Of a DNA stretch of 64,000 nucleotides, positions 1 to 50,731 are shown piece by piece. Numbering within the stretch: position 1 is the stretch's first letter; every line of letters begins with the position of its first letter. Made by a program: the position numbers and the translations under genes. The notes under the pieces are model-generated. The model made no database searches and was not told the origin of the DNA. It saw nothing but the letters and a program-made list of their open reading frames with translations. Source of the stretch: Candidatus Woesearchaeota archaeon (lineage in GTDB: Archaea; Nanobdellota; Nanobdellia; SCGC-AAA011-G17; PNOQ01); contig JBDRML010000016.1 of assembly GCA_043812195.1 (NCBI GenBank), forward strand, positions 64,001 through 128,000. The letters are read 5' to 3'.

Positions 1-487
1 CGAATACAACGTAAGCGAGAAAGTCTATTCCTTTATTAAGATTTCCATTAATAAAAATACAATTATCTTCCAAATAAAAATCTTCATCAGCAGACGAATC
101 TAATACAACCACAAAATTATCCCCATCACAATCAATAATAGGTAATGTGCTGTTATCATCCAAACTACCAAATTGACTAATTATACCAGCAGAAGTAAAA
201 ACATCTCTCAATCTGGCTCCCTGATACCCATTACTTTTATCAACAACATAAATCAAATTGCCTTTAATATCTATAGGACCCATATCTTCTACTTCACTTG
301 GCAAATATGTAAAAGTTTGATAAGAATTAGTTCTTGAAACAAAAGTGGCCCATCCTTGATCAGTTTGTTGAAATTTATATCCGTTGTATTTTTCAGAACC
401 ACCCCCACTATAAATAAATCCCAAAGTACTCATTACCATTATAAATATAATAAAAAGAGCTGCAAACAGATTTTTAGATTTTTTCAT
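1..487 (-). CDS. Membrane-anchored hypothetical protein (3' end outside window)
   Basis: ATG at 487 opens MKKSKNLFAALFIIFIMVMSTLGFIYSGGGSEKYNGYKF...; N-terminal TM; the frame stays open to the window edge; missing from the ORF track. Confidence 0.75.
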   Translation of the reverse strand, partial: MKKSKNLFAALFIIFIMVMSTLGFIYSGGGSEKYNGYKFQQTDQGWATFVSRTNSYQTFTYLPSEVEDMGPIDIKGNLIYVVDKSNGYQGARLRDVFTSAGIISQFGSLDDNSTLPIIDCDGDNFVVVLDSSADEDFYLEDNCIFINGNLNKGIDFLAYVVF

Positions 488-569
488 AAATAATTAGAAT
501 TTAATCTTAATTAAAAAGGTTTCGTAAAAAATTAAAAAGAAAAAAAGAAAGAAAAAGTGTAAAATTTAT

Positions 570-2777
570 TTACACTATTTGTTCTGTTCCAGTTAGGCCA
601 CTAGCTGCTACACTACTTGCTGCTCTTGCAGTATCTGCTTTCTCCCATCCAGCTACAATCAATGCCATCTTATCGCCATCTTCCATTAACTTAATAACGG
701 CTGTATCTGCTGCGATTCCAGAAGCACTTTCACAAGCTGGGTAAGTTAAGCTCATCCATTCTGCAGTTAAGCTATTAACACATGGTCCACCAACAAGGAT
801 TAAATTGTTATAACCAGCTGCTCCAGATTCAGTTACAAGTACTGCTTCAACATTTGTTGCTGCTCCACCTTCATAAACTCCTACATTAGCTTTTACCTGA
901 TCACCAGGAATTTGTAATGTAAACAAGTCGTTGTCTCCAGAAGAATCAGTTTCATCTGCCCTGATACCATATCCAGTTAACAAGTCATATTTCTTAGCTC
1001 CAACCATTACTCTTTCTACAGCAGTTGCAGTTGCACTTGGTGCCAATGTTGCTCCCCATACAACTTCAGTACTTTCAGAGTTATCTGTAGTTCCAAATCC
1101 TAGATAGTTACCAGCTGTAGCGTTTGTAGATTGTATTCTCCACCATAAGTTATCATTCACATCAGTTGCGTTATCTGGAATAATCCCTAAATACCATGCG
1201 TCATCTGCACCAATATCTCCGTATGATCCAAAAACCATATCTGTAGATTTAGTATTTCTGTAGTTCACATATCCCCATGCAGTATAATTAGCATTATTAG
1301 ATATATTTCCTGCGTGTTGCACCTTGTTATCTGAGTCTGTATAGAAGATTAAAGTTCTTCCTACATCCCTATCTGCTGTAGCAGAATTATTTCCAGCAAA
1401 AGTGGTATTAGTCCATAAAAAAATCTCGTCTGTTTTTATATCAGATGTTATCTTTGCTGTACCTGCAGCCTCTATTGCACTTTGATCAAGCACCAATCCC
1501 TCATTTTCATCAGACACTATAGAAATAACAATAGCTGCGCTTGGGAAAAGTCCTGCATTGGTAAGATCTTCTGTATTTTGACTATCTGTATAAATTTGTA
1601 CCTGCATATAGTCATCATCAGCCACATTGAAGTCTTTAACTCCTATGTAAGCATATCCCTCTGGCAATCCATAATACTCTCCAGTTCCAGCAGGGTCTTT
1701 ATTATAGTTATATGCTTCAAAGTCGTTTTCTATACAAACCTCATTAAAAGATCCAGATGCTCCAGATGTCAAAGCTCCTGCTTGCAATCCCTTAATATCC
1801 CAAACCCAATCAGGATTATTCTTATCACAATCAGGATCACCATGTGCGTCACTTGGAGAACAATATGTAGGATACTTATCTCCATCTTTATAAGTTACTC
1901 TAGCGTCTTCACCAATCACGAATGTTGCAACTGCTTCAGCTGCAGTACCAACACCAGCTATAGCAGAGTCCAAATAAACATCGATTTCTCCTTCAGAAAC
2001 TGTAGAACCTTCACTAATTGTTCTCTGGTCATTTCCAAAATCAATAATAGCACTAGTTCCATCTACAGCAACTACTTCCATTGTTATTCCATTACCAGAG
2101 TATACTTCTCCTGTGTGTCCAACCCAAGTATCACCAACTTGTGCAGTAAAAGATGAGTTGCTTGCAATAGCGTCAACTCTTAATGTCTTTCCTAAAAACA
2201 TCATATCAAATGGATTTGAAGTACTAACTATTCCACTCACATTAATATGTTCATCAAAAGTATAACAATACTTAATTGCATCTTTTCTAATCTCTAACTT
2301 AGGATCCCATTCATACTTATCATCACTACTTGTTAGACTAGTTTCCATATCAAAGTTATTAGCAGTAGCTGTTATTTGAAGTTCATGATGGTAATCATAA
2401 CTTGTTCCAGCAATACTCACTTCTGCATCATCAAAGATAGCAGAATCTGAGTCATCATAAATTGTATCCAAACCAGTACTTGTTGCAATGTTATCTTGTA
2501 ATTTAATTTCTTCTATCTGAATTAAATCCCCTAGACCTGCAGCTTCAGCTGTAGCTAAACCATCAAAATATGTTTTCAAAGTGCTTCTTGCAGCGTCATC
2601 ATTTGTTCCAGCAGCGCTACCTACAACCATTGCAGTATCTACATAAGAATCACTTACAATAAATGGCGCAGGTAAATCAGCTAAAGTTTCTCCAGCTGCG
2701 AATGCGCCCCCGAAAGCAGACAATAACATTAGTCCACCAGCACCAGCTGCTGCTACTTTTTTAATTATTCGTTTCAT
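570..2777 (-). CDS. S-layer protein
   Basis: Signal peptide; N-terminal LADLPAPFI..VVGS.A...D and C-terminal NLILVGGPCVN..IVAGW..DT..A motifs typical of archaeal S-layer proteins; strong SD (GAGGAGGTG). Confidence 0.85.
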   Translation of the reverse strand: MKRIIKKVAAAGAGGLMLLSAFGGAFAAGETLADLPAPFIVSDSYVDTAMVVGSAAGTNDDAARSTLKTYFDGLATAEAAGLGDLIQIEEIKLQDNIATSTGLDTIYDDSDSAIFDDAEVSIAGTSYDYHHELQITATANNFDMETSLTSSDDKYEWDPKLEIRKDAIKYCYTFDEHINVSGIVSTSNPFDMMFLGKTLRVDAIASNSSFTAQVGDTWVGHTGEVYSGNGITMEVVAVDGTSAIIDFGNDQRTISEGSTVSEGEIDVYLDSAIAGVGTAAEAVATFVIGEDARVTYKDGDKYPTYCSPSDAHGDPDCDKNNPDWVWDIKGLQAGALTSGASGSFNEVCIENDFEAYNYNKDPAGTGEYYGLPEGYAYIGVKDFNVADDDYMQVQIYTDSQNTEDLTNAGLFPSAAIVISIVSDENEGLVLDQSAIEAAGTAKITSDIKTDEIFLWTNTTFAGNNSATADRDVGRTLIFYTDSDNKVQHAGNISNNANYTAWGYVNYRNTKSTDMVFGSYGDIGADDAWYLGIIPDNATDVNDNLWWRIQSTNATAGNYLGFGTTDNSESTEVVWGATLAPSATATAVERVMVGAKKYDLLTGYGIRADETDSSGDNDLFTLQIPGDQVKANVGVYEGGAATNVEAVLVTESGAAGYNNLILVGGPCVNSLTAEWMSLTYPACESASGIAADTAVIKLMEDGDKMALIVAGWEKADTARAASSVAASGLTGTEQIV

Positions 2778-3108
2778 TTAATCTAAACACCTCCTCGTGT
2801 TCATTTTTTCATTGTATCAAGAACACTGTCACCTCTACAAATGTCATACTGTCGTCTTATTAATCTTAATTAAATCTAACGCATTTCGTCTATTTATAAA
2901 CATTTATACACTATAGTAAACAAAATAATGTCAATTCCTTATAATTTAGCAATTTCAAGCCCCAATTCCTTATAATTTCAATTATAGAAGATACTTCTAT
3001 AAAAAACATCATTTCTCACAAATTACAACATAAAATATCTTTCATCAAAAATTTGAAAAGCTTTTTATATTGATAGTAATTCCCACCCAACAATAGAAAA
3101 ACTTATAA

Positions 3109-4097
3109 ATGTAGTCACCCATATATTAAATATGAATTTAGAAGTAAGAAATGTTGGGAAAAAGAAAAAGTATTATTTAGCTCACTCATTCAGAGAAGGA
3201 AAAAAAGTAAAGAAAATAAGAAGATATTTAGGCTCAAATCTAAATAAAATTCAACTAGAAAAACTAAAAGAAAGATCAGAAGAAATCATAAAGCAACAAA
3301 TAGAAAACTATAAGATCATAGCAGATCCATTAAAACACGAATTAACAGAAAAAGAATTAGAATTCCTAAAAAATTTAGAAACAAAAGGAAAAATAGAAAT
3401 AAAACATCTTTCCAAAGAGCAATGGACTAAATTCACAGAGCTTTTTACATATAACACAAATGCCATTGAAGGCTCTGAAGTAAATCAAAAAGAAGTTAAA
3501 GAAATTTTAGAAGAAAACAAATGGCCAAAAGAAGTAGATAGGGAAGATATTTCAGAAACATACGGGGTAGCAGAAGCAATTGAATTCATAAGAAAAACAA
3601 AAGAACATATATCCCTTTCCTTGATTAAAAAAATACACCAAATAATTTTCAAAAATTCCAAATCATTTGCAGGGAAATTTAGAACCAAAGGTATTGAAGT
3701 AGCTATTAGGGATAAATTAGGAAATATAGCCCATATAGGGGCTCCTGCCAATAGAATTAGAGGATTATTAGAAGAACTAATAGATTGGCATAATAAAAAT
3801 AAGAATAAATATCCCCCAATACTATTAGCCGCTGTTGTTCATAATCAATTTGAAAATATCCACCCTTTTCAAGATGGCAATGGGAGAGTGGGAAGGCTAT
3901 TGTTAAATAATATTTTATTAAAAAATAACCTGCCTCCAGTAAATATAAGTCTTGGAAATAGAAGAGAATATTATTCAACTCTACAATCTTATCAAAAAAA
4001 AGGAGACATAAAACCCACAATTAAATTGATTTTAAAAGAATATAAAGAATTAAAGAAAGAATTAGGTGTCTACAAAAATTAATGATGTAGTCACCCA
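3109..4097. promoter_or_regulatory. ATGTAGTCACCCA motif pair flanking fic (3109-3121, 4085-4097) plus an inverted copy at 4065-4074
   Basis: Identical 13-mers, the first directly after the TTATAAA TATA box; GGTGTCTACA is a 9/10 inverted match. Confidence 0.6.
3132..4082 (+). CDS. Fic family protein with N-terminal beta-sheet domain
   Basis: Canonical Fic motif HPFQDGNGRVGR; TYNTNAIEG helix. Confidence 0.92.
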   Translation: MNLEVRNVGKKKKYYLAHSFREGKKVKKIRRYLGSNLNKIQLEKLKERSEEIIKQQIENYKIIADPLKHELTEKELEFLKNLETKGKIEIKHLSKEQWTKFTELFTYNTNAIEGSEVNQKEVKEILEENKWPKEVDREDISETYGVAEAIEFIRKTKEHISLSLIKKIHQIIFKNSKSFAGKFRTKGIEVAIRDKLGNIAHIGAPANRIRGLLEELIDWHNKNKNKYPPILLAAVVHNQFENIHPFQDGNGRVGRLLLNNILLKNNLPPVNISLGNRREYYSTLQSYQKKGDIKPTIKLILKEYKELKKELGVYKN

Positions 4098-4144
4098 ACA
4101 TCAAAACATTATTTTTTACAAATTACAACATAAAACTCAAATGC

Positions 4145-5413
4145 CTATAACAACCATTTCCACAAAGAAATATATTTTATCTTTTTACCATTAATTCTCT
4201 CTTCACCATCCTTATCATTGGTTATAATAACTAAATTATTGCATTTAAGCTCTATACTCGCTTTCAATAATGATTTAATCTCTCTGCTTTTCGTATTTTC
4301 ACTTTCAATATCATAGCATACCTGAATTAGTTCTTTAATCTTTAATCCTTCCTTAACAACAAAATCAACTTCATTTTGTTGATGGTCCTTCCAATAATAA
4401 ACTTCAGTATTAATTTTATCGTTTTTGAACTTTCTTCTTAATAATTCTATAACGACTATATTTTCGAATAATTTACCATTATCTTTCGACAACCTAAAAC
4501 TAACAAAATTGCAGAATCCATGATCAACAGAATAAACCTTTTTAGGAGCAATTATTTGCTGTTTCAATTTATTTGAATATCTTTCCAAAACTATTATCAA
4601 AAAAGCTTCCTTTAAATAATTAACATAGTTTTTAATCGTATGAGGATCTTTTATATTAAATATTTTAGAAAGTTTTGAATATGTAAATTCACTAGAAAAA
4701 TTGCTTATGAGATAGCTAGAAAGTTCTCTAAAAGTGCCTTTTTTTTCAATAGCATATCTTCTCAAACAATCTTTGTTTATTATATCCTCGTAAATTCTCA
4801 CAACCATATTTGAGCCAAACTTTGCAAATTCAGGAAATCCGCTGCCATGAAGATACTTATTAAACTCCCGCCTTATTTTGGCGCGATCTTCAGTTGCATA
4901 AATATTAGGCTTAAAGCTTAATGTTTCTTTAAATGAAAACGGATATAAAACAAAATCTATGTATCTGCCAGTTAAATGAGTAGCTAACTCACCGGATAAT
5001 AATTTAGAATTACTGCCGGTTATAATAACTTTCTTGCTTCTTCTAAGCCTTGTCGCAAATAATTCCCAGCCAGTTACATTTTGAATTTCATCCAAAACTA
5101 CAAGGTCTATATCACCATACATTTCATAAAATGCTTCCAATATTTTATTCAAATCAGATGTCTTGACATTAATCAGCCTTTCATCGTCAAAGTTTATATA
5201 AGCAAAATTTTGTTTTAATTCTTTTGATAAAATCAGAGAAAAAATAGACTTTCCGCTTCTTCTAACACCAAGTATAGCAAGTATATTAGGATACTTAAGA
5301 TATTTTTTCTCGTAGTCTATGAGCTCTCTTTCTACTATTTTCTCTTCACTAAATTTCTTTTCCAGCTCTCTCCTTTGGTCTTCTATTATCCTTTTTAGTA
5401 TCTCTAATTGCAT
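4145..5413 (-). CDS. AAA_14 / DUF4143 ATP-binding protein
   Basis: Walker A GVRRSGKS, Walker B LDEIQ, TGSNS, LTGR, C-terminal EVDFV; ATG at 5413 is the likely start. Confidence 0.9.
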   Translation of the reverse strand: MQLEILKRIIEDQRRELEKKFSEEKIVERELIDYEKKYLKYPNILAILGVRRSGKSIFSLILSKELKQNFAYINFDDERLINVKTSDLNKILEAFYEMYGDIDLVVLDEIQNVTGWELFATRLRRSKKVIITGSNSKLLSGELATHLTGRYIDFVLYPFSFKETLSFKPNIYATEDRAKIRREFNKYLHGSGFPEFAKFGSNMVVRIYEDIINKDCLRRYAIEKKGTFRELSSYLISNFSSEFTYSKLSKIFNIKDPHTIKNYVNYLKEAFLIIVLERYSNKLKQQIIAPKKVYSVDHGFCNFVSFRLSKDNGKLFENIVVIELLRRKFKNDKINTEVYYWKDHQQNEVDFVVKEGLKIKELIQVCYDIESENTKSREIKSLLKASIELKCNNLVIITNDKDGEERINGKKIKYISLWKWLL

Positions 5414-5632
5414 AGGAATCAAAACACAAACATCTTTATAAAGTTTGCGGTTACGAACTACATACTTTTAAACCTTTATTTTTCACAAATTACAACATAA
5501 AATTCAAATTCCCAAGATCTCCTAAAAGATTCAGAATTAATGCCTAAAAAACAATCTCCAACTACGCTCAAACTATGCCATTATTCACAAAAAGTTTAGT
5601 ATTCTTAAATAAAAAGTGAATAATAGAAACAT

Positions 5633-6043
5633 TTATTTTTCACAAATTACAACATAAAATTCAAACTCTCCAGACCTTCTAAAAGATTCAGAATTAATGC
5701 CTAAAAAACAATCTCCAACTCTAATTTCTTCACCACTACTGCATTCCATTACAAATCCAGAATCCTCATCAACAAAATTCATATTCCCAGATACAAAATT
5801 TCTCAATGTATTACAATCAACTTCTTCACCCAAACAACAACTAGTTGCTAAATCTCCAAAATTAGTTCCGCTAACATCAGCTTTAGCCAAAGCATTAGCA
5901 AAATTATACGCTTTATTATTCAAATAAACATTCCTATCATCTCCTCCACTCCTAGAAAACAATAAAGCAAACAACCCAATAAACACAACTAACAAAACAA
6001 TAATAACCAATCCAAATGTTTCTATTTGTCCTTTTTTAAACAT
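5633..6043 (-). CDS. Class III signal peptide (pilin-like) protein
   Basis: MFKKG/QIETFGLVIIV followed by a hydrophobic stretch. Confidence 0.7.
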   Translation of the reverse strand: MFKKGQIETFGLVIIVLLVVFIGLFALLFSRSGGDDRNVYLNNKAYNFANALAKADVSGTNFGDLATSCCLGEEVDCNTLRNFVSGNMNFVDEDSGFVMECSSGEEIRVGDCFLGINSESFRRSGEFEFYVVICEK

Positions 6044-6488
6044 ACCTCTCTACCTCCAGAACACCAACATAATACTTCTCATCCCATGCATTATACACAC
6101 TAACAGGACTAGTTATTTTTCTTATTCCAGTATAACTTGATAATTTATTATCATACAAAACTAAAGTATCAGCAGAAACTTTCAATGTAATTTTCTTATA
6201 ACCGAACAAATTCTTATAATATTCATTATCACTCACATCAGCAAAAGCTCTTGCCTTATAAAAATCAATACTTCCTTTTTGATCTCCTCTAACAGAATAA
6301 CTCAATTCAGGCATACTAGGAACAAAACTAATCATATCTTCAAATTTATCTTCTTGATACTTCTCATTTAGATTCTCAATAGATCTAATTTGAAATTGAT
6401 AAAACAAAACAAAACCAATCAATAAAATAACCACAACTATAAATATAACAAATCCTGTTTCCTGTATTTGTAATTGTCCTTTTTTCAT
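6036..6488 (-). CDS. Class III signal peptide (pilin-like) protein
   Basis: MKKG/QLQIQET plus TM. Confidence 0.7.
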   Translation of the reverse strand: MKKGQLQIQETGFVIFIVVVILLIGFVLFYQFQIRSIENLNEKYQEDKFEDMISFVPSMPELSYSVRGDQKGSIDFYKARAFADVSDNEYYKNLFGYKKITLKVSADTLVLYDNKLSSYTGIRKITSPVSVYNAWDEKYYVGVLEVERYV

Positions 6489-7309
6489 TAATAAATTACC
6501 TCACAACCATGATTATCCAAAGCCTCATTCAAACTAATAATTGAATTAATATTATCATCTCTTAAAGCACCTATAATTTGTCCATATTCAGCACATTTAC
6601 TTCCAAAATATTGTGCCTTCTTGATATAAAGTTCTTTCAAACTATTCTTCCTTTCTTCTAAATAATTCTTACTACATTCAAAAACATCCGGACTTGAAAA
6701 CATCGCACCATAAACAAAAACATTATCTCCATTATAATTAAAATATTTATCTTCATTAACATACCAAATCTGATTTCCATTAAAAGCTATAACTTTTTTA
6801 TTAGGATTAGGTTCAGCACCTCCAAAATAAACCAAAACATCAGCATTCCCTTCACTAGTTATTTTCAATTCATTAGGTATCTCATCCATAAATTCTTCAT
6901 TAACACCAGAAAAATAAAATTTCAAATCAGAATTCCATAAATAAACCACAGTATCAATCAAATAAGGTTTTTCATAATTCTGACTCCACATACTAAAAGG
7001 ACCTTCGCTTTTATCTTCAACAAAGATTACACTACTAGATTCAATAGACTGATCTTCATTAATATACATCCTCTCACAATTATATTCTAAAACAAAATCT
7101 GAAAAATCTTCTCCAAAAACTTTATACTGAGAAATTCCTTTAGCACCCAAAATAGAACTATCCAAAGCCCTTACAATCTTACCATTTTCTTTACTCTGCT
7201 CTAAATCAATATATCTTACACTAAAGAATGCAAAAAATATTAAAAACAACGCACCAGCAATAATAACAAAAATCCAATTAAACTGAATGCCCTGACCTCT
7301 TTTTTCCAT
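6488..7309 (-). CDS. Class III signal peptide (pilin-like) protein
   Basis: MEKRG/QGIQFNWIFVII plus TM. Confidence 0.7.
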   Translation of the reverse strand: MEKRGQGIQFNWIFVIIAGALFLIFFAFFSVRYIDLEQSKENGKIVRALDSSILGAKGISQYKVFGEDFSDFVLEYNCERMYINEDQSIESSSVIFVEDKSEGPFSMWSQNYEKPYLIDTVVYLWNSDLKFYFSGVNEEFMDEIPNELKITSEGNADVLVYFGGAEPNPNKKVIAFNGNQIWYVNEDKYFNYNGDNVFVYGAMFSSPDVFECSKNYLEERKNSLKELYIKKAQYFGSKCAEYGQIIGALRDDNINSIISLNEALDNHGCEVIY

Positions 7310-7414
7310 AACCTAAATTCAGAATTATTATTTAAATAGATTGTGTTAAGGTAAAAACCCAAAGGTTTATATATATTAACGTATTTATGTTTTTTAACGT
7401 AAGGAGGTTTAAAA

Positions 7415-7657
7415 ATGGTGAGCATCACATTATCTGTCCCAGAAGAAATTAAAAAAAGCATGGAAACATTTTCAGAAATAAACTGGTCTGGATTTGTCAG
7501 AAAATCCATCATAGAAAAAACACAAGAACTAACAAAAAAAGAAGAGTTATTAAAAGAATTAGAAAAAGAAAAAGATATAATAGATTGGTCTGTAAAACTT
7601 CAAAGAGTATCAAGGAAAGGAAGATTCCAAGATTTAAAAAAGAAGGGATTAATATGA
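7415..7657 (+). CDS. RHH/CopG-like antitoxin (VapB-like)
   Basis: MVSITLSVPEEIKKSM..INWSGFVRKSI RHH pattern; SD AGGAGG; ATGA overlap with the PIN gene. Confidence 0.8.
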   Translation: MVSITLSVPEEIKKSMETFSEINWSGFVRKSIIEKTQELTKKEELLKELEKEKDIIDWSVKLQRVSRKGRFQDLKKKGLI

Positions 7658-8082
7658 AATTGGTAACTGATACAAACATATTATTCACTTTTTTCTGGAA
7701 AAACTCCTATACAAGAAAATTATTCATAAATCAAGATTTAGAATTAATATCTCCAGAATTCGCTTTAGAAGAAATAAAAAAATATTCCGAAGAAATAATT
7801 AGAAGAGCAAAAATATCAAAAAAAGAATTTCAGGATATCAGAAAAGAACTCGCTCTTATGGTTGAATTTATACCTTTAAAAGAATATTCAGAATATTTAA
7901 AAAAAGCATCAGAAATTTCTTATGATAAAGATGATGTTGATTTTATTGCTTTAGCTTTAAAACTAAAATCCCCCATATGGTCTAATGATAAAGAATTTAA
8001 GAAACAAAATAAAATTAAAGTTTACTCTACTCTAGAAGTTTTAAAAGAATTAAACTATGGATCAATTAATAATGAAAAGTAA
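7654..8082 (+). CDS. PIN domain toxin (VapC-like)
   Basis: LVTDTNIL...DKDDVDFIALA..IWSNDK; start moved to ATG 7654. Confidence 0.85.
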   Translation: MKLVTDTNILFTFFWKNSYTRKLFINQDLELISPEFALEEIKKYSEEIIRRAKISKKEFQDIRKELALMVEFIPLKEYSEYLKKASEISYDKDDVDFIALALKLKSPIWSNDKEFKKQNKIKVYSTLEVLKELNYGSINNEK

Positions 8083-8209
8083 AAAAATGCCAGAAAATCC
8101 TTTAAAAGATTGTTTAGGAATTCTAAAAAAAGATAAAGAATGGGAAGAATTAGAAAAAAATCTAAAAATAGATTGGAAAAATTTTAACGAAAAATTAAAA
8201 AGGACTTAA
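8072..8209 (+). CDS. Small 45-aa ORF, possibly an antitoxin C-terminal remnant
   Basis: MKSKKMPENPLKDCLGILKKDKEWEELEKNLKIDWK..; resembles the L..FG.LK tail of AbrB-type VapB. Confidence 0.35.
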   Translation: MKSKKMPENPLKDCLGILKKDKEWEELEKNLKIDWKNFNEKLKRT

Positions 8210-8213
8210 AGGA

Positions 8214-8705
8214 TTAAATATGTTCCGCTAATACTAATTCTCCTTTATTAGTAAATCTAATGTCAATTTTATTATCAATTAAGTTATCACATAATGGATT
8301 CAAACCTTCAATATAAATTCTTTCGAATTCTTTAGATCTTAATTTCTCATCAGCAAAAAACACATTTTCATCTTGAAAACCAGAATAAGACAAATTAATA
8401 AATTCTCTCAAATTAAAATTATTAACCAAACTTAAATCAATTTCACTATTTCTATCAATAATACAAATTTCAGAAATACTATTTGGAATATTAATATTTT
8501 CTAAAGACATTATACTTCCAAAACTATCATGATAAACCTTACTTTCAACTTCCTCTATATCACTAACAAATCTTTGATACTCAACTTCCTGTCCAGTATT
8601 TATAACATTAATAATAGCTTTCACTCCAAAAAATAAAATAATAGCAGCAACTATCAAAAGAAAAATATACACAAAAGGTTGCCCCATTAATTGTCCTTTT
8701 CTCAT
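8214..8705 (-). CDS. Class III signal peptide (pilin-like) protein
   Basis: MRKG/QLMGQPFVYIF plus TM. Confidence 0.7.
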   Translation of the reverse strand: MRKGQLMGQPFVYIFLLIVAAIILFFGVKAIINVINTGQEVEYQRFVSDIEEVESKVYHDSFGSIMSLENINIPNSISEICIIDRNSEIDLSLVNNFNLREFINLSYSGFQDENVFFADEKLRSKEFERIYIEGLNPLCDNLIDNKIDIRFTNKGELVLAEHI

Positions 8706-11700
8706 CTTGGATAAACTGTAAATGGATTAGTATTCTTATTGTCCCATTTATCTAAACACTTAATATAATAAACATCTTCACCTAAAGAAGCATAGTGTTC
8801 TTTCTCGTTTCTAGCAGAAATCATAGTAAAGACTGTATCTTCATTTTCATCCTGCACATCAAAGTTATCTTTCTCACTACTATATTTACATACACTTTCT
8901 TCATTCATCAAAACATGTAATTGCTGACTTGTTGTCCAAACTCTTAATAAAATAGGAGCATCTAAGTCCTTGAATATAACTATAGTTCTTTCTTCCTGCA
9001 CCACATTACCAGCAAAATCAGTACACTCATATAAAACAGGATAATGCAGACCTTCAGGAGTTCCTTCAATATCTTCATGTAAAGTCTTATGTGTTCTTGA
9101 AAACAAAGTAGTTACATTATACCAATTATCTCCTATCTGATATTTACATATAGCATCATTTCCTGTTTCAATCTCAATTTCAAATTTATCATCATATGTT
9201 TCAAATGTTGCATTAGGCTCAATAATATCCATTTCAAATGTTGGCCAAATCATTGCAGTCCATAAGTAAGGATCTTCCATAACATTAGATTCCTCCCCAA
9301 TATCAGGTACATCTCCACATTTAATCCATAATGGACAGAAAGTACTATTAAATGGTTTTGTAATTCCATTACCTTCAGGTATATTAATTTCTTCACACCA
9401 GCCAGCTTCTCCTAAATTAAACTCAGTTTGGAATTTCTGGCAAGTTTCATCAGTCTGACTACATGGAGTATTTCCTTTACCACCAAAGCTTGTCATATCT
9501 CCATAATTCAAAGTATCATTATCCTTAGAATATTTACAATCTTGAACATTATTCTTATCATAAGCATACAATATAAATGGAATATTTGTAGTTCCTTCAG
9601 GTACATTAATATTCACAGGATTAATATAATCAATAATTGGAGGCAATTCATCAGGAGCCTCTTTAAAACTAAAACTCACATAATCTTTATCTTCTTTATT
9701 AGTATTTCCAGCTATATCTTGGCATTTAATATAAATATAAGTTTTGTCTCTAACTTTATCTTCAGCTCTAAATGTAATATTCACTCCATGATCAGCAGAT
9801 GCACCCCATGGGAATGAAGTCATATCATCATATTCAGTACTTCTAGCAAAACTATATTTACAATGTCCTATTTCACTAGTATTTATTTTTAGAAGAGTAT
9901 AAGAAGTTTCCCATTCAATTTTATCACTAATTTCTAATTTTCTTCCTTCACCCTTAAATTCTTGTATTGTTAAATTATCTTCACCCTTAAATTCAATCTC
10001 TATAGATTCTAAATAAGGGGAACTATGATCATCAGGCTCAGAAGGCAAACACAATCCTCCAACAACCCCATTTTCTTCAAAAGGAACATAACTACACCAA
10101 TCACTCTCAGCTCCTAAAATCTTACATCTCTTTTCAGTGCAATCCCATTGTCCTTCTAATCCACACTCAGCACAATGAATATTATCAGTATATGGTTTCT
10201 CCGGAATACATTCTCCTGTTTTAAATGAGGTTGTTACAGTATAAATTGAAGCTATATATGATGCTATAATCAAAATCTTACTAACAGCCTGAGAAGAAAT
10301 TTTACCAAATAAACCACCACTAGAAACTTCACCACCTTCAAGAGTATAAGCAACCCCTTCAACACTTTGTGTCACTTGTAAATTAAATTTTACTAATGGA
10401 GAAATCATATTAGGAGCAATCTTAGAAAATACAATAGTTAAAACATTAGCAGCAGCAGAATAATAGAATGAATTAGGAAATTTTCTATCAGAATCAATAC
10501 CACTAGCCTCAAATATTTCATTTTTTTCTTCTTCGCTCAAAATCTTATCTAAATGGTTAGCCCAAGATAAGATATAAGATAATCTCAATTTATCATTATA
10601 ATATAAATCTCCAGCATCTTTCGGAGTATCGTGTGTACCTGTAGCAGCAGTATAACCATAAACAATAGATAAAACACCCCAATATATTACCGCACCAAGC
10701 GACATAAATCCACCAACAACACCAGACGCACATGCAGCCCACCCTGGGAACCCAACACCAGGAAGTGCAGCAACAACACCACAAACTGCAATCATAGATC
10801 CCATTGTACCTACAGCAATTGCTCCAGTAGTTGCAAGCCCTGCTGTTGAAAAACCATCAGCTTCGAACTGGCAATCTCCTAAAGCATTACACTCAAAATC
10901 AGTACAAACATTTACAGAACCATCGCCACCTTTTCCACACTGGCTACATCTATTTCCTGAATCACCATATCCTTCAGCTCCTTCACCAGGAGGATACAAA
11001 GCATTACAACTTCCAATTGGTGCCCAAACATCCCTATCATAACCTTCCTCTTGCATTAAAGGTCCACCACCACAATTACCAAAATCAGAACATTTATCTT
11101 GATTATTAAACCACCCATTATCATCAGTACATTGTTTGCCAACAACATTAGCTAAAAATTGTCCAACACCTGGCGCATAATTAAAAAAATCAATCACAGA
11201 ACGCCCATCTCCACAATCCTTATGACATTTTTCCCAGGCATTATCAACCAAATCAGCCTCTACCCTTGTTAAATTTCCAATCTTAGTTACAGATTCTTCA
11301 CATCTCATTCCCCTATTTTTATCATCATAATCAGGTTCTATTTCTCTATTCTGGCATGTTAACACATAATTATGCAATCCAGTACTTTTTCTATCATTCA
11401 AAAAATGTCCAGAAAGAACATTCATACAAATAGACTCTCCACTTTTAAAAGTATTTGGCCATGTATTAGGAGAATCTTCAACACAATCAGTACTTAAACA
11501 AACCGCATCTTCACCACCAACCACATTATCAGGGTCATCACACATTCCACCAGGCCTGCATTCATCAAATATTTCTTCTCTATTTCCATCAGAATCATAA
11601 TAATAAACATCCCACTTATCATCATCAGTAGTTCCATCGCCGCAGCTTTTAAACTTATGACCTTCTCTATAACTAGGACACCCAACAACTTCAGAACATA

Positions 11701-12313
11701 AAGTACTTTCAAAGAAATTAGCCCTTTCAAATCCAGGAGCATCTTTAAATCTATCTAAAGGACCATATTCACAAACTCCACCACCCGCACTCTTATAACA
11801 TCCAGTTACAGAACCAGAACATTCTAAATTACAATCTTGTCTATTTGTAATTCCACCAATAAATTGTTCGCCACCTAAATCAGTTCTACAAACTTTTTCT
11901 TCTTGAACACTACAAGAACCAAATTGTATGCAACATCCAGATTGACAAGCACTAACAGATTCCTTAGAAGCACCTAAATGAAAAGTGCCGCCATCTGTTT
12001 TACATCTAACTTCTTCAACATTATCTAAACAACCACCAACATCAGAAGGGACACATGCACCTTTTTGACACTCATTTATTTCTCCTTTAGTCTGAAAATT
12101 CCATTCATGCCCTCCTGCACATCCACCATAAGCATCCCAACCTTGTCCATTAGAAACTTCAACACAATAATCTCCATTATTAGTTAAACCGCAAGTATCA
12201 ACATTAGCAGCTGAAACTTCTTCAGTATTTAAAACCAAAGCAAAATTAATAACAGCTACAATCATTATAACTGAGAAAAATACAGCAATTGATTTTCTAA
12301 TAGCATATTTCAT
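8702..12313 (-). CDS. Large Cys-rich secreted/membrane protein with Ig-like C-terminal repeats
   Basis: Signal peptide, many Cys motifs, central Gly/Ala hydrophobic segment, repeated CKYS..C.D..GN modules. Confidence 0.7.
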   Translation of the reverse strand: MKYAIRKSIAVFFSVIMIVAVINFALVLNTEEVSAANVDTCGLTNNGDYCVEVSNGQGWDAYGGCAGGHEWNFQTKGEINECQKGACVPSDVGGCLDNVEEVRCKTDGGTFHLGASKESVSACQSGCCIQFGSCSVQEEKVCRTDLGGEQFIGGITNRQDCNLECSGSVTGCYKSAGGGVCEYGPLDRFKDAPGFERANFFESTLCSEVVGCPSYREGHKFKSCGDGTTDDDKWDVYYYDSDGNREEIFDECRPGGMCDDPDNVVGGEDAVCLSTDCVEDSPNTWPNTFKSGESICMNVLSGHFLNDRKSTGLHNYVLTCQNREIEPDYDDKNRGMRCEESVTKIGNLTRVEADLVDNAWEKCHKDCGDGRSVIDFFNYAPGVGQFLANVVGKQCTDDNGWFNNQDKCSDFGNCGGGPLMQEEGYDRDVWAPIGSCNALYPPGEGAEGYGDSGNRCSQCGKGGDGSVNVCTDFECNALGDCQFEADGFSTAGLATTGAIAVGTMGSMIAVCGVVAALPGVGFPGWAACASGVVGGFMSLGAVIYWGVLSIVYGYTAATGTHDTPKDAGDLYYNDKLRLSYILSWANHLDKILSEEEKNEIFEASGIDSDRKFPNSFYYSAAANVLTIVFSKIAPNMISPLVKFNLQVTQSVEGVAYTLEGGEVSSGGLFGKISSQAVSKILIIASYIASIYTVTTSFKTGECIPEKPYTDNIHCAECGLEGQWDCTEKRCKILGAESDWCSYVPFEENGVVGGLCLPSEPDDHSSPYLESIEIEFKGEDNLTIQEFKGEGRKLEISDKIEWETSYTLLKINTSEIGHCKYSFARSTEYDDMTSFPWGASADHGVNITFRAEDKVRDKTYIYIKCQDIAGNTNKEDKDYVSFSFKEAPDELPPIIDYINPVNINVPEGTTNIPFILYAYDKNNVQDCKYSKDNDTLNYGDMTSFGGKGNTPCSQTDETCQKFQTEFNLGEAGWCEEINIPEGNGITKPFNSTFCPLWIKCGDVPDIGEESNVMEDPYLWTAMIWPTFEMDIIEPNATFETYDDKFEIEIETGNDAICKYQIGDNWYNVTTLFSRTHKTLHEDIEGTPEGLHYPVLYECTDFAGNVVQEERTIVIFKDLDAPILLRVWTTSQQLHVLMNEESVCKYSSEKDNFDVQDENEDTVFTMISARNEKEHYASLGEDVYYIKCLDKWDNKNTNPFTVYPR

Positions 12314-16086: not shown

Positions 16087-16452
16087 TTATTTAACAAATT
16101 CAACATTATCAAGATTTTCAAACTCTTTATCTCCTGTAACAAACTTCCATTTCCTATTTATTGATATAGCATATCCCAAACAATCTATATAACTAAATTT
16201 TTTTGGTTTAAATTTAGATTTTAATTTTGAAGCAAGTTTTATATCTTCTATGTCAAATGATATTAAAAGTTCTTTAAATTTTTCAGTTATTTCATCCGCT
16301 TTTCCCTCTCCAAAAGATTTAAGAATAGCATTATGTAACTCTAAAAGATTAAGTAATGATGTAAAATTTATAGTGTCCTTAAACTTTTCATAATTATTAT
16401 TTTCCTTAACAATTTCAATTAATGCATAAGTGTCTAAGAGATATTCTTCCAT
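16087..16452 (-). CDS. PIN domain toxin VapC
   Basis: LLDTYALIE..FSYIDCLGY..VTGDKEF. Confidence 0.9.
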   Translation of the reverse strand: MEEYLLDTYALIEIVKENNNYEKFKDTINFTSLLNLLELHNAILKSFGEGKADEITEKFKELLISFDIEDIKLASKLKSKFKPKKFSYIDCLGYAISINRKWKFVTGDKEFENLDNVEFVK

Positions 16453-16688
16453 TTCCTTTTTTCAGCTTCATACTCCTCTTTTCTAATCTCATCCTTAAAT
16501 TTCTGTGTATCTATTTTCCAATTCTTTAAAGTCCCAAAAGTCTCTCTTAAAACATTCCTGCCTTCTCTTTTAACCAAAACTGTAACTTCATCTCCTTCTT
16601 TTATATTCTCATCTTTAACTTCACCAATAGGTATAATTACACCAAACGAATTTCCCCATTTCCTTAATTTAGATTTGATTTCTATCAT
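16434..16688 (-). CDS. AbrB/MazE-type antitoxin
   Basis: LRKWGNSFGVIIP..IKEGDEV. Confidence 0.9.
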   Translation of the reverse strand: MIEIKSKLRKWGNSFGVIIPIGEVKDENIKEGDEVTVLVKREGRNVLRETFGTLKNWKIDTQKFKDEIRKEEYEAEKRKWKNIS

Positions 16689-31900: not shown

Positions 31901-32848
31901 ATGGAGATAGGTATAGATTCATCAATTGAATGCAAAATTTGTCAAAAAAACATGAAGACAATTACAAATAGCCACTTAAAAAAACATAATATAACACCTA
32001 AAGATTATAAAAAAAGATTTTCAGTAACTAAACTTCAAAGCGAAGATAGTAATAAAAAATTTATAAATTCTATGACTGGGAGAAAACTTCCTGAAGAACT
32101 AAAAAGAAGGCTTTCTAAAATCCATAGGGGAAAAATCATTAAAGAAGAAACTAGAAGAAAAATAAGTAACACCCTTAAAGGAAGAAAAGCAAGCAAAGAA
32201 CGTATAGAAAAATTAAAAGAATTTTATAAAATTCACGGGTGTTCAAATAGGGGAAGAAAACATACTGAGAAAACAAGAAAAAAGATAAGTGAATCCGGAA
32301 AGGGAAGAATCCCGTGGAACAAAAACAAAAAGTGTTTTTATAAAATAAAAATAAGTAAAAAACTAAAGGGAAGAAAATTAAGCTTGGAGACCAGGAAAAA
32401 AATGAGCATAGCGTTCAAAGGAAGAATAATGTCAAAAGAAGCCAAGGAAAAAATGAGTATTGCAAAAAAAGGAGTACCACTATCATTCGAACATAGAAAG
32501 AAAATTATGGAATCACAACGGAGATGTCCAAATAAATTCGAAAAGACATGTATAAAATTATTTAAAGAAAACAATTTACCCTTAGAATATGTGGGAGATT
32601 ATAGAAACAAAAAATTTTTTATAGGGGGAAAGGTTCCGGACTTCGTATCAACAAACAACAAAAAAGTGATAATAGAAGTATTTCATGATTATTTCAAAAT
32701 TAGACAATATGGTTCAGTAGAAAACTATAAAAAAGAAAGAAAGAAAATATTCTTTGAATATGGATGGAACACTTTATTTTTTACATATTATGAAATAAAT
32801 TCAAATCCTAATAAATGCATATCAACTATAATGGAGGAACTAAAATGA
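31901..32848 (+). CDS. NUMOD3-repeat protein with a C-terminal Vsr/DUF559-like endonuclease (homing-endonuclease-like)
   Basis: N-terminal CKIC..HLKKH Zn finger; many G(R/K)K.S.ETR.K(I/M)S repeats; PDF..IIEV...YF nuclease motif. Confidence 0.8.
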   Translation: MEIGIDSSIECKICQKNMKTITNSHLKKHNITPKDYKKRFSVTKLQSEDSNKKFINSMTGRKLPEELKRRLSKIHRGKIIKEETRRKISNTLKGRKASKERIEKLKEFYKIHGCSNRGRKHTEKTRKKISESGKGRIPWNKNKKCFYKIKISKKLKGRKLSLETRKKMSIAFKGRIMSKEAKEKMSIAKKGVPLSFEHRKKIMESQRRCPNKFEKTCIKLFKENNLPLEYVGDYRNKKFFIGGKVPDFVSTNNKKVIIEVFHDYFKIRQYGSVENYKKERKKIFFEYGWNTLFFTYYEINSNPNKCISTIMEELK

Positions 32849-47870: not shown

Positions 47871-48989
47871 CTAATAATCTCGTTCTAATACATAAATTTC
47901 CCTATCAATAATACTTTTATCTTTTTTATACATAATAGGCAATTTAATATTGTCACAAAGCTTAACTATTTTAAATCCAGTTTTCCTAAAAAGCTCATCA
48001 AAATCAATCTTAACTCTTCCACTTTTTGTTTTAAACATAGGAAAAATAATAGCAACTTTTCCATTTTTTTTCAAAACATCTTTCAAGGAATTAAAAAACT
48101 TAGAATAAAGTTCATTTAAATTTGAAATAATTTTCAAAGCTTCTTCACGTGTAGGTATTTTTTTTAAATAAGGTCCTAAAAAAGGCTCACTAACAACACA
48201 ATCTATAGAATTTTTTTTAAATATCTTATTTATATTAACAACATCATTATTATAAATCTTAAATCTTTTATTAATTTTATATTTATCAACTGTAAACTTA
48301 ATATTTTTCAAAGCACTCTTAGAAGTATCTTTTTCTAATTCAACCCCAAAAACATTAATATTCATCAACAAAGCTTCTTGTAAAATAATTCCCATTCCAC
48401 AAAAAGGATCTAACAAAATACTATTTTCTTTAGCCTGTGACAAATTGATTAAAATCTTAGCTAACCTAATAGAAATGCTCTTAACAAAATCATTGTATGG
48501 TCTCTCATCATCCCTTTTTTTATATTCAGAAGGATTAGAAACAGCTACAGTCTTAGAAACACAATTATCAAACAAAATAAACTCTAAAATATTTTTATTC
48601 ATATCTCTAGGATCAAAACTTAATTTTTCTTTCTTTTTTCTATTTGCTTTGATTTTATTTTCTTTAAACCATTTTTTTAAATAATCTTCAAATTTTTCAA
48701 ATAATTTAGATTTACCATAAACACCTATACAATAATTTAATTTATTCTTAGTTCCATCATAGACATTTATATCATCAAAATTTTCTTCAGAAACTACTAG
48801 CCCGATTTTTATAATTCCTCCCAATCTAGAGATAGCCTTGCTATAATCAAATTTATCTAAACTAAAAACTGCAATTTCATCATTACATTTTTTCAATTCA
48901 TAATTAATATTATTTACTTTAAAATAACTTATCAATTCCAAAAAAGACAATTCAGGATCTCTTCCTAAAACAAACACATAGTCCTTCAT
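47871..48989 (-). CDS. Trm11-like tRNA m2G10 methyltransferase
   Basis: LAKILINL..LLDPFCGMG.IL.EA, VSEPFLG; likely start ATG 48989 (ATGA overlap). Confidence 0.8.
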   Translation of the reverse strand: MKDYVFVLGRDPELSFLELISYFKVNNINYELKKCNDEIAVFSLDKFDYSKAISRLGGIIKIGLVVSEENFDDINVYDGTKNKLNYCIGVYGKSKLFEKFEDYLKKWFKENKIKANRKKKEKLSFDPRDMNKNILEFILFDNCVSKTVAVSNPSEYKKRDDERPYNDFVKSISIRLAKILINLSQAKENSILLDPFCGMGIILQEALLMNINVFGVELEKDTSKSALKNIKFTVDKYKINKRFKIYNNDVVNINKIFKKNSIDCVVSEPFLGPYLKKIPTREEALKIISNLNELYSKFFNSLKDVLKKNGKVAIIFPMFKTKSGRVKIDFDELFRKTGFKIVKLCDNIKLPIMYKKDKSIIDREIYVLERDY

Positions 48990-50269
48990 TTTATCAATAA
49001 CCATTTCCATAATGGAATAAACCTAATACCTTGCTCTTTCTTTTCTAAATCTCTGGTTAACACCATAATCTCTTTAGTTTTTTTAAATAGTTTCTTAAAT
49101 TCTAATAAAGATTTAATCTCCCTCTCATCAATTTCATTTGCATAGCAAACATTTATAGCAGTTAGAGTTTGGTCCCTATTCTTAATCACAAAATCAACTT
49201 CTCCTTTATTTTTCCAATAATAAACATCCTTTTCTCTCCTTTTTAGTTCAATAAAAACCAAATTTTCTGCCAAACGTCCTTCATCCTTTGAAAATTTAAA
49301 TGAAACAGCATTCCTTAAACCATTATCTATACAAAATATCTTAGAAGCAAGAATCTTTTGCTCTTTAAATGAATAAGAAAAATGATCCAAAATAAAAAAC
49401 AAAAAGCTCTCATTGTAATAAGATAAATAATCCTTAATAGTATCATAAGAAATGCCCAAAGAATTTCTTAAGTTCCTCAAAGAAATCAAACTTGTAAAAT
49501 TTGTTACTAAAAATAATGCCAAATCTTTTACTTTTTGGCTATTTAAATTATATCTGTCAATAACATCTTTATATAAAATATCATCAAAATACTGTTCTAA
49601 AATTTTAATTTTGTATCTTTCTGGTTTAAAGAAAATTTCTGGAAAGCCTCCTAAACTTAAATATTTCTTAAAATGTTTTAATATTATATATTTTGTTTTC
49701 TCCAATAAAATACCTTTTTTTAGCTTCACTTTATCTACGAATATTTTTTCAAATAAAAGATATTCAGCAAAAGAAAGAGGAAACACATCAAATGTTAAAT
49801 TTCTTCCTGTAAGAAGAGTAGAATACTCTTTTTTTAATAAATAAGAACAAGAACCTGAAATAATAAATTTATCATCAGTTTTTAAATCATATTTTTTTCT
49901 AATCCACTGCTCCCATCCACTCTTTTTATGAATCTCATCCAAGAATATATATGCTTTTTTATCAGGGTTCAAACTTTCTTTATACATATTATATATATCT
50001 TCAAGACCTAAATTAACTAATTTTTTATCCTCCAAATTTACAAATAATATTTGTTTTGGATTTATTCCTTTTTTAATCAAATTATCAACCATTTGATACA
50101 TTAAAGTGCTTTTCCCAGACCTCCTAACACCAGTAATTACTGTTATCTCTCTAATATCAATAGAATTAACCAAATCAATATAATCAGACCTATCTTTTCC
50201 TTTCAAATCCCTTATTAATCCTGGCTCTTCCCACCAAGGATTCCATTCTTTTAAAATTTCTATTATCAT
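48986..50269 (-). CDS. AAA_14 / DUF4143 ATP-binding protein
   Basis: NPWW, GVRRSGKS, FLDEI, LTGR, GGFPE, EVDFV; paralog of 4145..5413. Confidence 0.9.
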   Translation of the reverse strand: MIIEILKEWNPWWEEPGLIRDLKGKDRSDYIDLVNSIDIREITVITGVRRSGKSTLMYQMVDNLIKKGINPKQILFVNLEDKKLVNLGLEDIYNMYKESLNPDKKAYIFLDEIHKKSGWEQWIRKKYDLKTDDKFIISGSCSYLLKKEYSTLLTGRNLTFDVFPLSFAEYLLFEKIFVDKVKLKKGILLEKTKYIILKHFKKYLSLGGFPEIFFKPERYKIKILEQYFDDILYKDVIDRYNLNSQKVKDLALFLVTNFTSLISLRNLRNSLGISYDTIKDYLSYYNESFLFFILDHFSYSFKEQKILASKIFCIDNGLRNAVSFKFSKDEGRLAENLVFIELKRREKDVYYWKNKGEVDFVIKNRDQTLTAINVCYANEIDEREIKSLLEFKKLFKKTKEIMVLTRDLEKKEQGIRFIPLWKWLLIK

Positions 50270-50322
50270 GTTACGTTTTAGTGTAACATCTTATATATAA
50301 ATGTTACGTTTTAGTGTAACAT
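50268..50322. promoter_or_regulatory. Two identical 22-bp palindromic operators around a TATA box
   Basis: ATGTTAC-GTTTTAGT-GTAACAT at 50268-50289 and 50301-50322, flanking TTATATATAA. Confidence 0.75.
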
Positions 50323-50476
50323 TCACTTCTTTTTCCTCCCCTTAAGTTTGAAATAAACAAACCTTCATTTTATCAACAGCCATTTCCATAATGGAATAAA
50401 ACTAACTTATTCTTAGATAGTATGAAAAACCAAACATTTATATAATCTTTCTTACATATCTTACTACTAAGAAAAA

Positions 50477-50731
50477 ATGAAAGAAGAAATAAAAGATATA
50501 AGGACCGTAAAAATAACGGAGAAAGGGCAAATTTGTATTCCTAATGTTGCGAGAGATCTCGCAGGATTTAGTAAAGGAACAAAAATAAGCATAGTAGTTT
50601 ATAATGATAGAGTCGAATTAAGACCCTTAAAAAAAATTAGCAAAGATATGCTTTCTGCTTTAATCTCAGAGGAAGTTCTTGCAGAAGCATGGAATACTCC
50701 AGAAGAGGATGAAGCATGGAAAGATTTGTAA
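50477..50731 (+). CDS. AbrB/MazE antitoxin
   Basis: VKITEKGQICIP..R; C-terminal WNTPEEDEAWKDL. Confidence 0.88.
   Translation: MKEEIKDIRTVKITEKGQICIPNVARDLAGFSKGTKISIVVYNDRVELRPLKKISKDMLSALISEEVLAEAWNTPEEDEAWKDL

Follow-up and report, generated by a model that had tools for sequence, protein, structure and literature searches.

Copies of a pilin-like gene's 3′ end bound AAA and Fic cassettes behind a surface operon of a woesearchaeotal archaeon

Organization of the locus

The stretch analyzed here, which we refer to as the window, is a 64,000-nucleotide (nt) segment of a Candidatus Woesearchaeota genome (G000:C16:64001-128000, where G000 is the source genome), and it contains a short array of gene cassettes behind the last pilin-like gene of a surface operon, with copies of the end of that gene at the cassette boundaries. 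The archaeon is tiny and comes from groundwater, and its genome measures 938 kb (45 contigs, about 90% complete by estimate); the named relatives of the window genes are in metagenome-assembled genomes (MAGs) of Woesearchaeota, Nanoarchaeota and Pacearchaeota. The pilin-like host gene (pil136) has an N-terminus of the class III signal-peptide type (MFKKGQIE..), its product ends in ..FEFYVVICEK*, and homologs are present in 51 of the 61 genomes searched, the source genome included. Twenty of the homolog loci were retrieved and 17 gave a usable tblastn match; in all 17 the gene is the last of a conserved surface operon and lies ahead of the S-layer gene. The order around pil136 is giant Cys-rich protein, pilin-like, 273-amino-acid (aa) protein, pilin-like, pilin-like, and all 17 loci match operon genes in this region but not every gene in each: for example, L026, L032, L033 and L040 have no match to big1203 and L042 has none to pil163. 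The S-layer gene is matched in 17 of 17 loci and a 162-aa gene in 16. The positions of the features are listed in Table 1.

Table 1. Features of the cassette array, its surroundings and a second AAA cassette. Positions are those of the window; ORF, open reading frame.
Feature	Position	Strand	Remarks
S-layer gene, usual direct downstream neighbor of the pilin-like gene	570..2777	-	Pfam S_layer_C; synteny
R3, shortest orphan copy (FYVVICEK, stop TGA)	3003..3045	-	about 30-43 nt; adjoins S-layer upstream region
Fic promoter (TATA and operator motif ATGTAGTCACCCA)	3098..3121	+	second motif copy at 4074-4097, next to the fic stop
Fic gene, SoFic/PDC-S04-like	3132..4082	+ (opposite strand to AAA)	316 aa; Pfam Fic 7.7e-23; PADLOC SoFic 4.4e-37
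R2, orphan copy, reads AFEFYVVICKK*	4103..4145	-	about 43 nt
AAA_14 and DUF4143 ATPase-nuclease gene	4145..5422	-	425 aa; Pfam 1.4e-32, 7.1e-25
AAA cassette promoter region	5423..5469	-	TTTAAAAGTATGTAGTT..AACCGCAAACTTTATAAA
R1, orphan copy of the last 29 codons and stop	5470..5563	-	94 nt, 94% identical to R0
Cargo-less 63-nt unit between R0 and R1	5564..5626	-	9-bp inverted repeat ATTATTCAC..GTGAATAAT
R0, live gene end (stop codon with the 29 codons before it and about 7 nt after it)	5627..5720	-	94 nt
Pilin-like gene (host gene, end copied; pil136)	5633..6043	-	ORF, 136 aa, no Pfam match
Small ORF and PIN_2 gene	7415..8082	+	inserted between two operon genes adjacent in most relatives
End of pilin-like gene 8214-8705 (pil163)	8189..8237	-	orphan copy exists in L045
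Second AAA_14/DUF4143 cassette	48983..50405	-	gene 48986-50269

The last 27 nt of the pilin-like gene (the core, TTTTATGTTGTAATTTGTGAAAAATAA) occur at four minus-strand sites, 5633-5659 (R0, the true gene end), 5476-5502 (R1), 4109-4135 (R2) and 3009-3035 (R3), the last three having zero, one and two mismatches to the core, respectively. There are no core matches in 100 shuffles, and the whole 938-kb genome contains no copies beyond these four, all of which lie in one 3-kb stretch; the core pattern was not found in genome contig or viral contig collections (0 matches each). Each unit of the array has a tail copy as its boundary. On the right, the homology ends at one and the same point in all four copies, 6–8 nt past the stop codon (..T(A/G)A(A)(T/G)GTTT), whereas on the left it reaches back by different lengths (94, about 40 and about 30 nt); 18 nt of the core do not vary among the window's copies.

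An initial annotation of this stretch had given the minus-strand order as pilin-like gene end, spacer of about 70 bp, copy 1, AAA gene, copy 2, fic, copy 3 and S-layer promoter. The ORFs and the copies confirm the order, with the S-layer upstream region after copy 3, and the spacer is present in its stated place but is exactly 63 nt long. Translation likewise bears out the readings given for the copies, which are ..FYVVICEK* in R1, ..FYVVICKK* in R2 and ..FYVVICEK* with TGA in R3, and the changes were rightly described as mostly silent: six codon changes within the repeats are silent and two are replacements (GGA>TGG and GAA>AAA), where about 18% silent changes would be expected at random.

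The AAA unit is minimal, consisting of R1, 47 nt of promoter, the AAA ORF, 2 nt and R2, such that the homology of R2 begins 2 nt past the AAA stop codon. The promoter block begins right after R1 and is common to the AAA cassettes at L063 and L092. In the AAA gene the motifs of the ATPase and of the PD-(D/E)XK type are intact (Walker A, Walker B, D300, E320, E351, D353 and K357 are 91–100% conserved among 78 aligned members of the family), and it corresponds at full length to the PADLOC candidate PDC-S01 (COG1373; PDLC04787, 1.2e-105, residues 27-425). Passages of one published study list DUF4143 in the PD-(D/E)XK nuclease superfamily (PMC3424549); defense is a putative function of PDC-S01, here as in passages of another study (PMC12988326).

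The Fic gene, which falls below the NCBIfam equivalog cut-off (50.6 versus 550 bits), is preceded by an operator motif whose core, TGTAGTCACC, is found 15–53 nt ahead of the start at 22 of the 29 Fic homolog loci, and close to the stop on the plus strand at four of them. Fic genes of the order share (A)TGTAGTCACC at positions of about -22 and -53 relative to the start, 31 nt apart (loci L185-L213), and this shared motif is probably an autoregulatory operator. A 24-nt repeat flanking fic itself was considered as a target duplication and rejected, as it is the Fic-family operator motif.

The fold of the cargo-less 63-nt unit is no better than that of shuffles (z -0.41). The cassettes show no compositional foreignness, with a G+C content of 0.28–0.29 compared to 0.298 for the window. 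No Rfam match was found in window positions 1-12000, and in a scan with bacterial-type promoter and terminator models, which are ill-suited to archaea, promoters are below shuffle expectation.

Insertion relative to related genomes

Comparison of the locus across related MAGs, as the initial annotation had proposed, is informative about how the array arose. The distance from the pilin-like stop to the S-layer start is 180–277 nt in 14 of the 17 relatives and 2855 nt in the window; in the remaining three the S-layer match is limited to the C-terminal part. The AAA and Fic genes are therefore insertions behind the pilin-like gene. Downstream copies of their own pilin-like gene end are represented in the 17 relatives by chance 11-mers only; these relatives are 30–47% identical in protein, so that their DNA is not alignable to the repeats.

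The surface operon of Woesearchaeota-type archaea is a recurrent landing place for defense genes. Three further genomes of the order (L084, L205 and L079) have an AAA or Fic homolog within this operon, the sites being between the giant Cys-rich gene and a pilin-like gene for an AAA homolog and between two pilin-like genes for a Fic homolog.

Comparison of two strains

The only other public match to the core is L045, an independent metagenome contig from a near-identical strain, with the same genes in the same order, and the strain comparison is that of the window with L045. In addition, four sequencing runs (X1, X4, X5 and X6) aligned at 85% likeness; their Logan contigs are short and shallow, and the joints listed have sides of 20–38 nt and lie off the repeat edges. 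One of them, from run X1, spans R3 and shows no difference there; with this and the identical order in L045, the arrangement is not an assembly artefact.

The window and L045 differ at 63 positions from 7330 to 2640, and the differences are far from evenly spread. Between 6595 and 2715 the tail copies, 274 nt in all, hold 17 differences (eight in R0, seven in R1 and a single one apiece in R2 and R3), and the 3607 nt that remain hold 15, among them five in the AAA gene and four in fic; the 63-nt unit is identical in both strains. Differences are thus about 15-fold denser in the tail copies, which are recombination hot spots between strains. The tract of differences at R0 runs 30 nt upstream of the repeat (5750, 5737 and 5732), several of the alternative bases are present in another copy, and a GTA>GTG variant is found in three of the four L045 copies and in none of those in the window. 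Over 45 codons the live ends of the two strains differ by eight synonymous and two replacement changes (18% synonymous expected), and when polarized with L045 the live copies have seven synonymous changes and one replacement. The R1 orphans of the two strains differ by one synonymous and four replacement or stop changes, and R1 of L045 carries an in-frame TAA. The copies thus exchange sequence, with the live end taking patches from diverged alleles, and the orphans are in decay. The seven differences in R1 lie within 36 nt and the 156 nt around them show none, for which the model offers no explanation.

Cassette content is a second respect in which the strains can be compared. The initial annotation had looked to cassette differences among relatives with breakpoints at the repeats; the two strains carry the same array behind pil136, and it is at a neighboring site that a difference of the expected kind is found. 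L045 has an extra VapB/PIN cassette that is not in the window, with the start of the PIN gene cut by the contig end. Beside it is an orphan pil163 tail comprising the last 21 nt of the gene and about 25 nt beyond (L045 8795-8844), preceded by VapB and the PIN start, so that the strains differ here by an insert with one breakpoint at a tail copy and the other past the contig end. In the window pil163 (8214-8705) ends directly ahead of the PIN_2 module, and at the site of that module (7415-8082) L045 has a diverged allele.

There are two further differences between the strains. A 170-nt patch at 6900-7069 in the gene for the 273-aa operon protein (p273) holds about 20 of the 63 strain differences, and looks like a short import from a diverged lineage. 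The S-layer gene is 50–78% identical between window 570-2714 and L045 1218-3443, with flanks that are 97–100% identical; the drop in identity runs from about 2530 to about 880, and, as its break is inside the signal peptide, the gene has been replaced outright (allele replacement).

Recurrence at other loci and in other genomes

On its two sides the second AAA_14/DUF4143 gene of the window has 44-nt direct repeats (41 identical) of its own end, and both differences in the gene's own last codons are synonymous. A MazE/PemK pair adjoins this cassette (50477-51057). AAA homologs (E <= 1e-20) are present in 101 of 240 genomes of the order, the source genome included, and in two of 24 of its own family. 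The best homologs are in other families or phyla, at 65–72% identity, those of 69–72% being in Methanofastidiosia, Methanosarcinales, Micrarchaeota and Nanoarchaeota; bacterial homologs are 52–57% identical, and in the viral contig collection no AAA relatives were confirmed.

Of the 109 AAA homolog loci retrieved, which come from other archaea and from bacteria, 80 have a full-length gene with no less than 350 nt to either side; 76 of the 80 are distinct. As controls, the upstream region of one locus was paired with the downstream region of another, with a threshold score of at least 20. Direct repeats reaching this score flank the gene at 16 of the 76 loci and at none of 380 controls; among the 16, L074 corresponds to a tandem paralog and L092 to the AAA gene's own end. 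The repeats consist of local sequence, different at every locus, with lengths from 17 to about 165 nt and no shared core. They typically end 35–140 nt ahead of the ATG, and in about 10 loci restart 0–30 nt past the stop. Two of them are tRNA ends (49 of 49 positions at L156 and 25 of 27 at L121).

Where the repeat lies in the coding end of an intact neighbor, synonymous changes predominate over replacements, with ratios of 10:1 at L085, 9:2 at L140, 5:2 at L067 and 2:1 at L064 (16–23% synonymous expected). At L085 all 11 family relatives examined have no AAA gene at the site, and the closest relative matches one tail copy at 52 and the other at 51 of 66 positions, compared to 53 between the copies themselves. 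This divergence is of the order found between species, so that one copy derives from another lineage, and a foreign allele tail was involved at both L085 and L140. The proposal in the initial annotation that each copy is a once-functional allele end therefore fares differently by locus, agreeing with the species-level divergence at L085 and L140 but not being required by the silent bias behind pil136, where the orphans decay (one synonymous change to four).

Scanning the genome for downstream copies of gene ends, also put forward in that annotation, gave positives: 15 of 836 ORFs of at least 100 aa in the source genome carry such flanking repeats. These include two of three AAA genes, two of three Fic genes and a PIN gene. 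Two of the loci lie behind housekeeping genes, with a Fic gene behind the gene for RNA polymerase subunit D (L178, G000:C42, 1589-3364) and a 105-aa ORF behind the gene for ribosomal protein S7 (L175, G000:C29, 965-2251). In both the host tail is duplicated, a copy of the last 36–43 nt of the host gene following the insert, and the Fic ORF ends inside the copy. Among Fic homologs, three of 24 reach a score of 30 compared to none of 192 controls.

Two other repeat-associated loci of this genome are of separate interest. L179 (G000:C1:33500-53400) is a cassette array in which a GC-rich hairpin motif, AGCGAGAGGTnTCTCGCGCTCTC, occurs 12 times; ahead of at least four of these stand copies of a 1061-aa gene's end, which differ mostly at synonymous sites (6:2, 4:0 and 4:2); this palindromic repeat of C1 was not found in the window. 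L226 (G000:C29:87857-91513) has a reverse transcriptase gene (1501-2157; PF00078, 1.8e-25) beside a pair of 84-nt repeats (2399-2482 and 3526-3609) in which 13 of 13 mismatches are at template adenines, and is a genuine diversity-generating retroelement.

How the array may have formed

Given the anatomy of the array, its insertion, the hot spots and the recurrence described above, the best overall explanation is that cassettes carrying a copy of the gene's tail join by recombination at the gene end, and we think the chances of this being correct are about even; the order of events, the donor and the enzyme are parts of it that we infer. Three insertion events would have taken place past the stop codon of the operon's last pilin-like gene. 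Each incoming piece would have been a compact unit with its own copy of the host gene's end, coming from a related lineage; two of the units would be promoter-bearing single genes (AAA_14/DUF4143 and Fic) and the third without cargo. Recombination at the gene end would place each unit after the stop at the same point, 6–8 nt past it, leaving the host gene intact and a partial, non-functional tail copy on the far side. After insertion the copies would keep exchanging sequence by gene conversion, and recombination between them could delete or release cassettes.

The joining itself may have been performed by the cell's own recombination, guided by the tail homology, either as a single crossover of the Campbell type or as homology-anchored illegitimate recombination. 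We favor this route tentatively, with slightly less assurance than the overall explanation, because there are many unrelated targets in a small genome with few recombinases, and because of the variable repeat lengths, the allele-like divergence at other loci and the cargo-less 157-bp unit. The junction point shared by the units means that a site-specific enzyme stays well in play.

A number of observations weigh against the explanation by tail-guided recombination. A site-specific enzyme would be expected to insert three different units at one junction point, which is not predicted by purely homology-guided or illegitimate joining, and judging from model organisms homologous crossover within 30–94 nt at 80–95% identity would be inefficient. 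At this locus the silent bias is explicable by selection on the live copy alone (7:1 compared to 1:4 in the orphans). The search for natural alleles with the W variant of R1 or the ..ICKK end of R2 found none among five homologs (5.8 billion proteins searched). At L085 the closest relative does not single out either tail copy as the native one, and 60 of the 76 AAA homolog loci have no flanking repeat. The array itself has identical cassette content in the two strains, and no excised-circle or empty-site joint was seen in the reads examined, the contigs of which are too short and shallow to judge.

With respect to enzymes, a Pfam scan of 54 window ORFs (the two giant ORFs and the second AAA gene being outside it) found no integrase or transposase, as the initial annotation had stated, and genome-wide searches with PF00589, PF00239 and PF07282 gave no match on contig C16, DDE transposase families not having been searched by name. 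The source genome encodes four tyrosine recombinases, one serine recombinase and one TnpB-like gene, all on other contigs, with the PF00589 matches confined to C36, C1, C15 and C45. The view taken in that annotation, of single-gene cassettes accumulating in series by att-like recombination into the last codons, is consistent with the insertions, the tail-bounded units, the common junction and the hot spots, but the recombinases to which it pointed are elsewhere in the genome, with none linked to the array. The end of the pilin-like gene might nonetheless serve as attB for an unlinked tyrosine or serine recombinase that integrates integrase-less attP units serially, with the newest next to the gene. 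Such an enzyme would account for the right junction common to the four copies and for the invariant 18-nt core, tandem att-bounded units match known accretion at gene 3′ ends, some AAA homologs (L156 and L121) are flanked by tRNA ends, and the genome contains both the five recombinases and a separate palindromic-repeat cassette array on C1. We nevertheless regard this alternative as somewhat unlikely, given that at least eight differently flanked cassettes with unrelated repeats coexist in a 0.94-Mb genome with few recombinases and none on C16, that the repeats vary from 17 to about 165 nt with no core between loci, and that the 157-bp unit (63 nt and R1) is implausible as an integrating circle; moreover, the core does not form a palindrome of the dif type, and the four junctions fold unremarkably as single strands (z -0.41, +0.39, -1.15 and -2.02).

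A role for the cargo itself is conceivable if the AAA_14/DUF4143 protein cuts cassette-free alleles near the gene end and repair copies in the cassette with a replacement tail, leaving the native tail downstream. The layout matches that reported in passages on mobile endonuclease open reading frames (mORFs), in which gene core, inserted C-terminus, endonuclease ORF and native C*-terminus follow one another (PMC3630166), DUF4143 is placed in the PD-(D/E)XK superfamily by the source cited above (PMC3424549), the catalytic-type residues are conserved, and flanking repeats are about 10 times commoner at AAA homologs (16 of 76) than at genes of the source genome in general (15 of 836). However, Fic, PIN, radical SAM and small unknown ORFs bear similar scars with no such nuclease, the empty unit and the Fic unit are left unexplained, the target differs at every locus, unlike that of a sequence-specific enzyme, and cleavage by AAA_14/DUF4143 is itself a prediction, such that nuclease-driven homing seems improbable. 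Local duplication by slippage, tandem duplication or a long staggered-cut target duplication, followed by decay, with cassettes arriving in unrelated events, would be in keeping with the decay of the orphans (the in-frame TAA in R1 of L045 and the changes between the two R1 copies, one synonymous and four replacement or stop) and with silent changes being mainly on the live copy. It is a very improbable account, as R0 and R1 have unrelated flanks to either side, which leaves no tandem unit, every copy is exactly at a cassette edge, and the copies at L085 and L140 have diverged at synonymous sites to a species-like level, beyond the recognizable survival of an orphan. Finally, the host gene is a pilin-like surface protein gene whose copies exchange sequence, in a genome with a real diversity-generating retroelement on C29, and the copies might be thought a store of silent pilin variation, as with pilE/pilS in Neisseria, or a retroelement target. 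Yet they span 8–29 codons and alter one or two residues, the R0/R1 mismatches are mixed (two G>A, two A>G, one T>G and one G>T) rather than adenine-specific like the 13 of 13 of the C29 pair, and similar scars lie behind housekeeping genes; both the retroelement and the pilS-like readings were rejected on these grounds and are scarcely credible here.

Relationship to known systems

Of the phenomena described so far, the closest is the insertion of restriction-modification (RM) genes with long target duplication. A report of such an insertion was reportedly made earlier by Nobusato et al. in 2000, which we know as cited by Furuta et al. Passages of the later study describe RM genes inserted with no mobility gene, with repeats of more than 30 bp of target sequence that sometimes overlap a gene's 3′ end, and with the mechanism left open; the study reports that its screen left no archaeal case (Furuta, Abe and Kobayashi 2010, PMC2853133). 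The locus behind pil136 is likewise without mobility genes and has repeats of 94, 43 and 30–43 nt, but it belongs to an archaeon and carries one single-gene ATPase-nuclease candidate and one Fic gene, three units stand in series at one point, and related loci show species-like allele divergence rather than fresh duplicates.

The mORFs of fungal mitochondria provide a second parallel, being described in parts of one study as consisting of host core, replacement tail, mobile ORF and native orphan tail, with tails that differ mainly at synonymous sites and Allomyces atp6 cited as an example (Beaudet et al. 2013, PMC3630166). The array shares the succession of replacement end, ORF and native orphan end. 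The enzymes encoded by mORFs are of the LAGLIDADG or GIY-YIG kind, often as in-frame fusions, whereas the ORFs here are free-standing with their own promoters and encode neither enzyme type but AAA_14 with DUF4143, and Fic, which is not a nuclease and is on the other strand.

In Streptococcus thermophilus, ICESt1 and cis-mobilizable elements (CIMEs) at fda form tandem units with direct repeats from the end of the target gene, some of them without an integrase. The array is similar in having direct repeats of the target's 3′ end at each unit boundary, but there is no integrase on the contig, the core is nowhere else in the genome, the units contain one gene or none, and insertions in this one small genome use many unrelated target ends. 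Integron arrays and clusters of attC sites lacking integron-integrases (CALINs) are serial single-gene cassettes with a fixed insertion point, in which the attC sites are imperfect palindromes whose sequence varies from cassette to cassette and the cassettes are mostly promoterless and in one orientation. Single-gene cassettes in series and one fixed insertion point are shared with the array, whose repeats, however, copy a coding end and are not attC hairpins; there is no IntI, PF00589 being absent from C16, and the cassettes carry their own promoters and face both ways. Campbell-type single crossover leaves an insert bounded by a duplicated homologous segment, and homology-facilitated illegitimate recombination one that has a conserved gene as its anchor on one side; neither explains the shared junction of three units or the trimming to promoter and ORF. 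A diversity-generating retroelement requires an adenine-specific repeat pair near a reverse transcriptase gene, and the only reverse transcriptase of the source genome is on C29.

PDC-S01 is overrepresented in Archaea and has moved between domains more than once, and SoFic and single-gene candidates are overrepresented in DPANN archaea. These very common genes, with the scars that surround AAA homologs in many other microbes, appear to travel by a route of their own. The mobility of such genes is undescribed in the literature searched; the titles, abstract openings and some passages of work on DUF4143, COG1373 and PDC-S01 contain no account of flanking duplications. It is conceivable, if unlikely, that PDC-S01, Fic and PIN-pair genes are recombinase-free mobile cassettes, each bringing the replacement end of a conserved host gene as its portable landing site, with the ATPase-nuclease aiding its own spread. 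The locus is a compact, testable example, with three events at one nucleotide position, copies still recombining in two strains and a polymorphic neighboring array. If such recombinase-free cassettes exist, gene ends would act as integrase-less att sites that build small cassette arrays, a prokaryotic counterpart of the mitochondrial mORFs.

Other features of the window

An exact 16-nt direct repeat (AAATTATAAGGAATTG, minus strand) is present at 2932-2947 and 2963-2978 in the upstream region of the S-layer gene. Farther along the window, a PIN and MazE-type pair (16087-16688) lies behind the gene for RNA polymerase subunit L, and its PIN gene is flanked by an exact 23-nt direct repeat. A gene for a protein with the NUMOD3 motif, which is typical of homing endonucleases, overlaps the start of the Hjc Holliday-junction resolvase gene (window 31901-33234).

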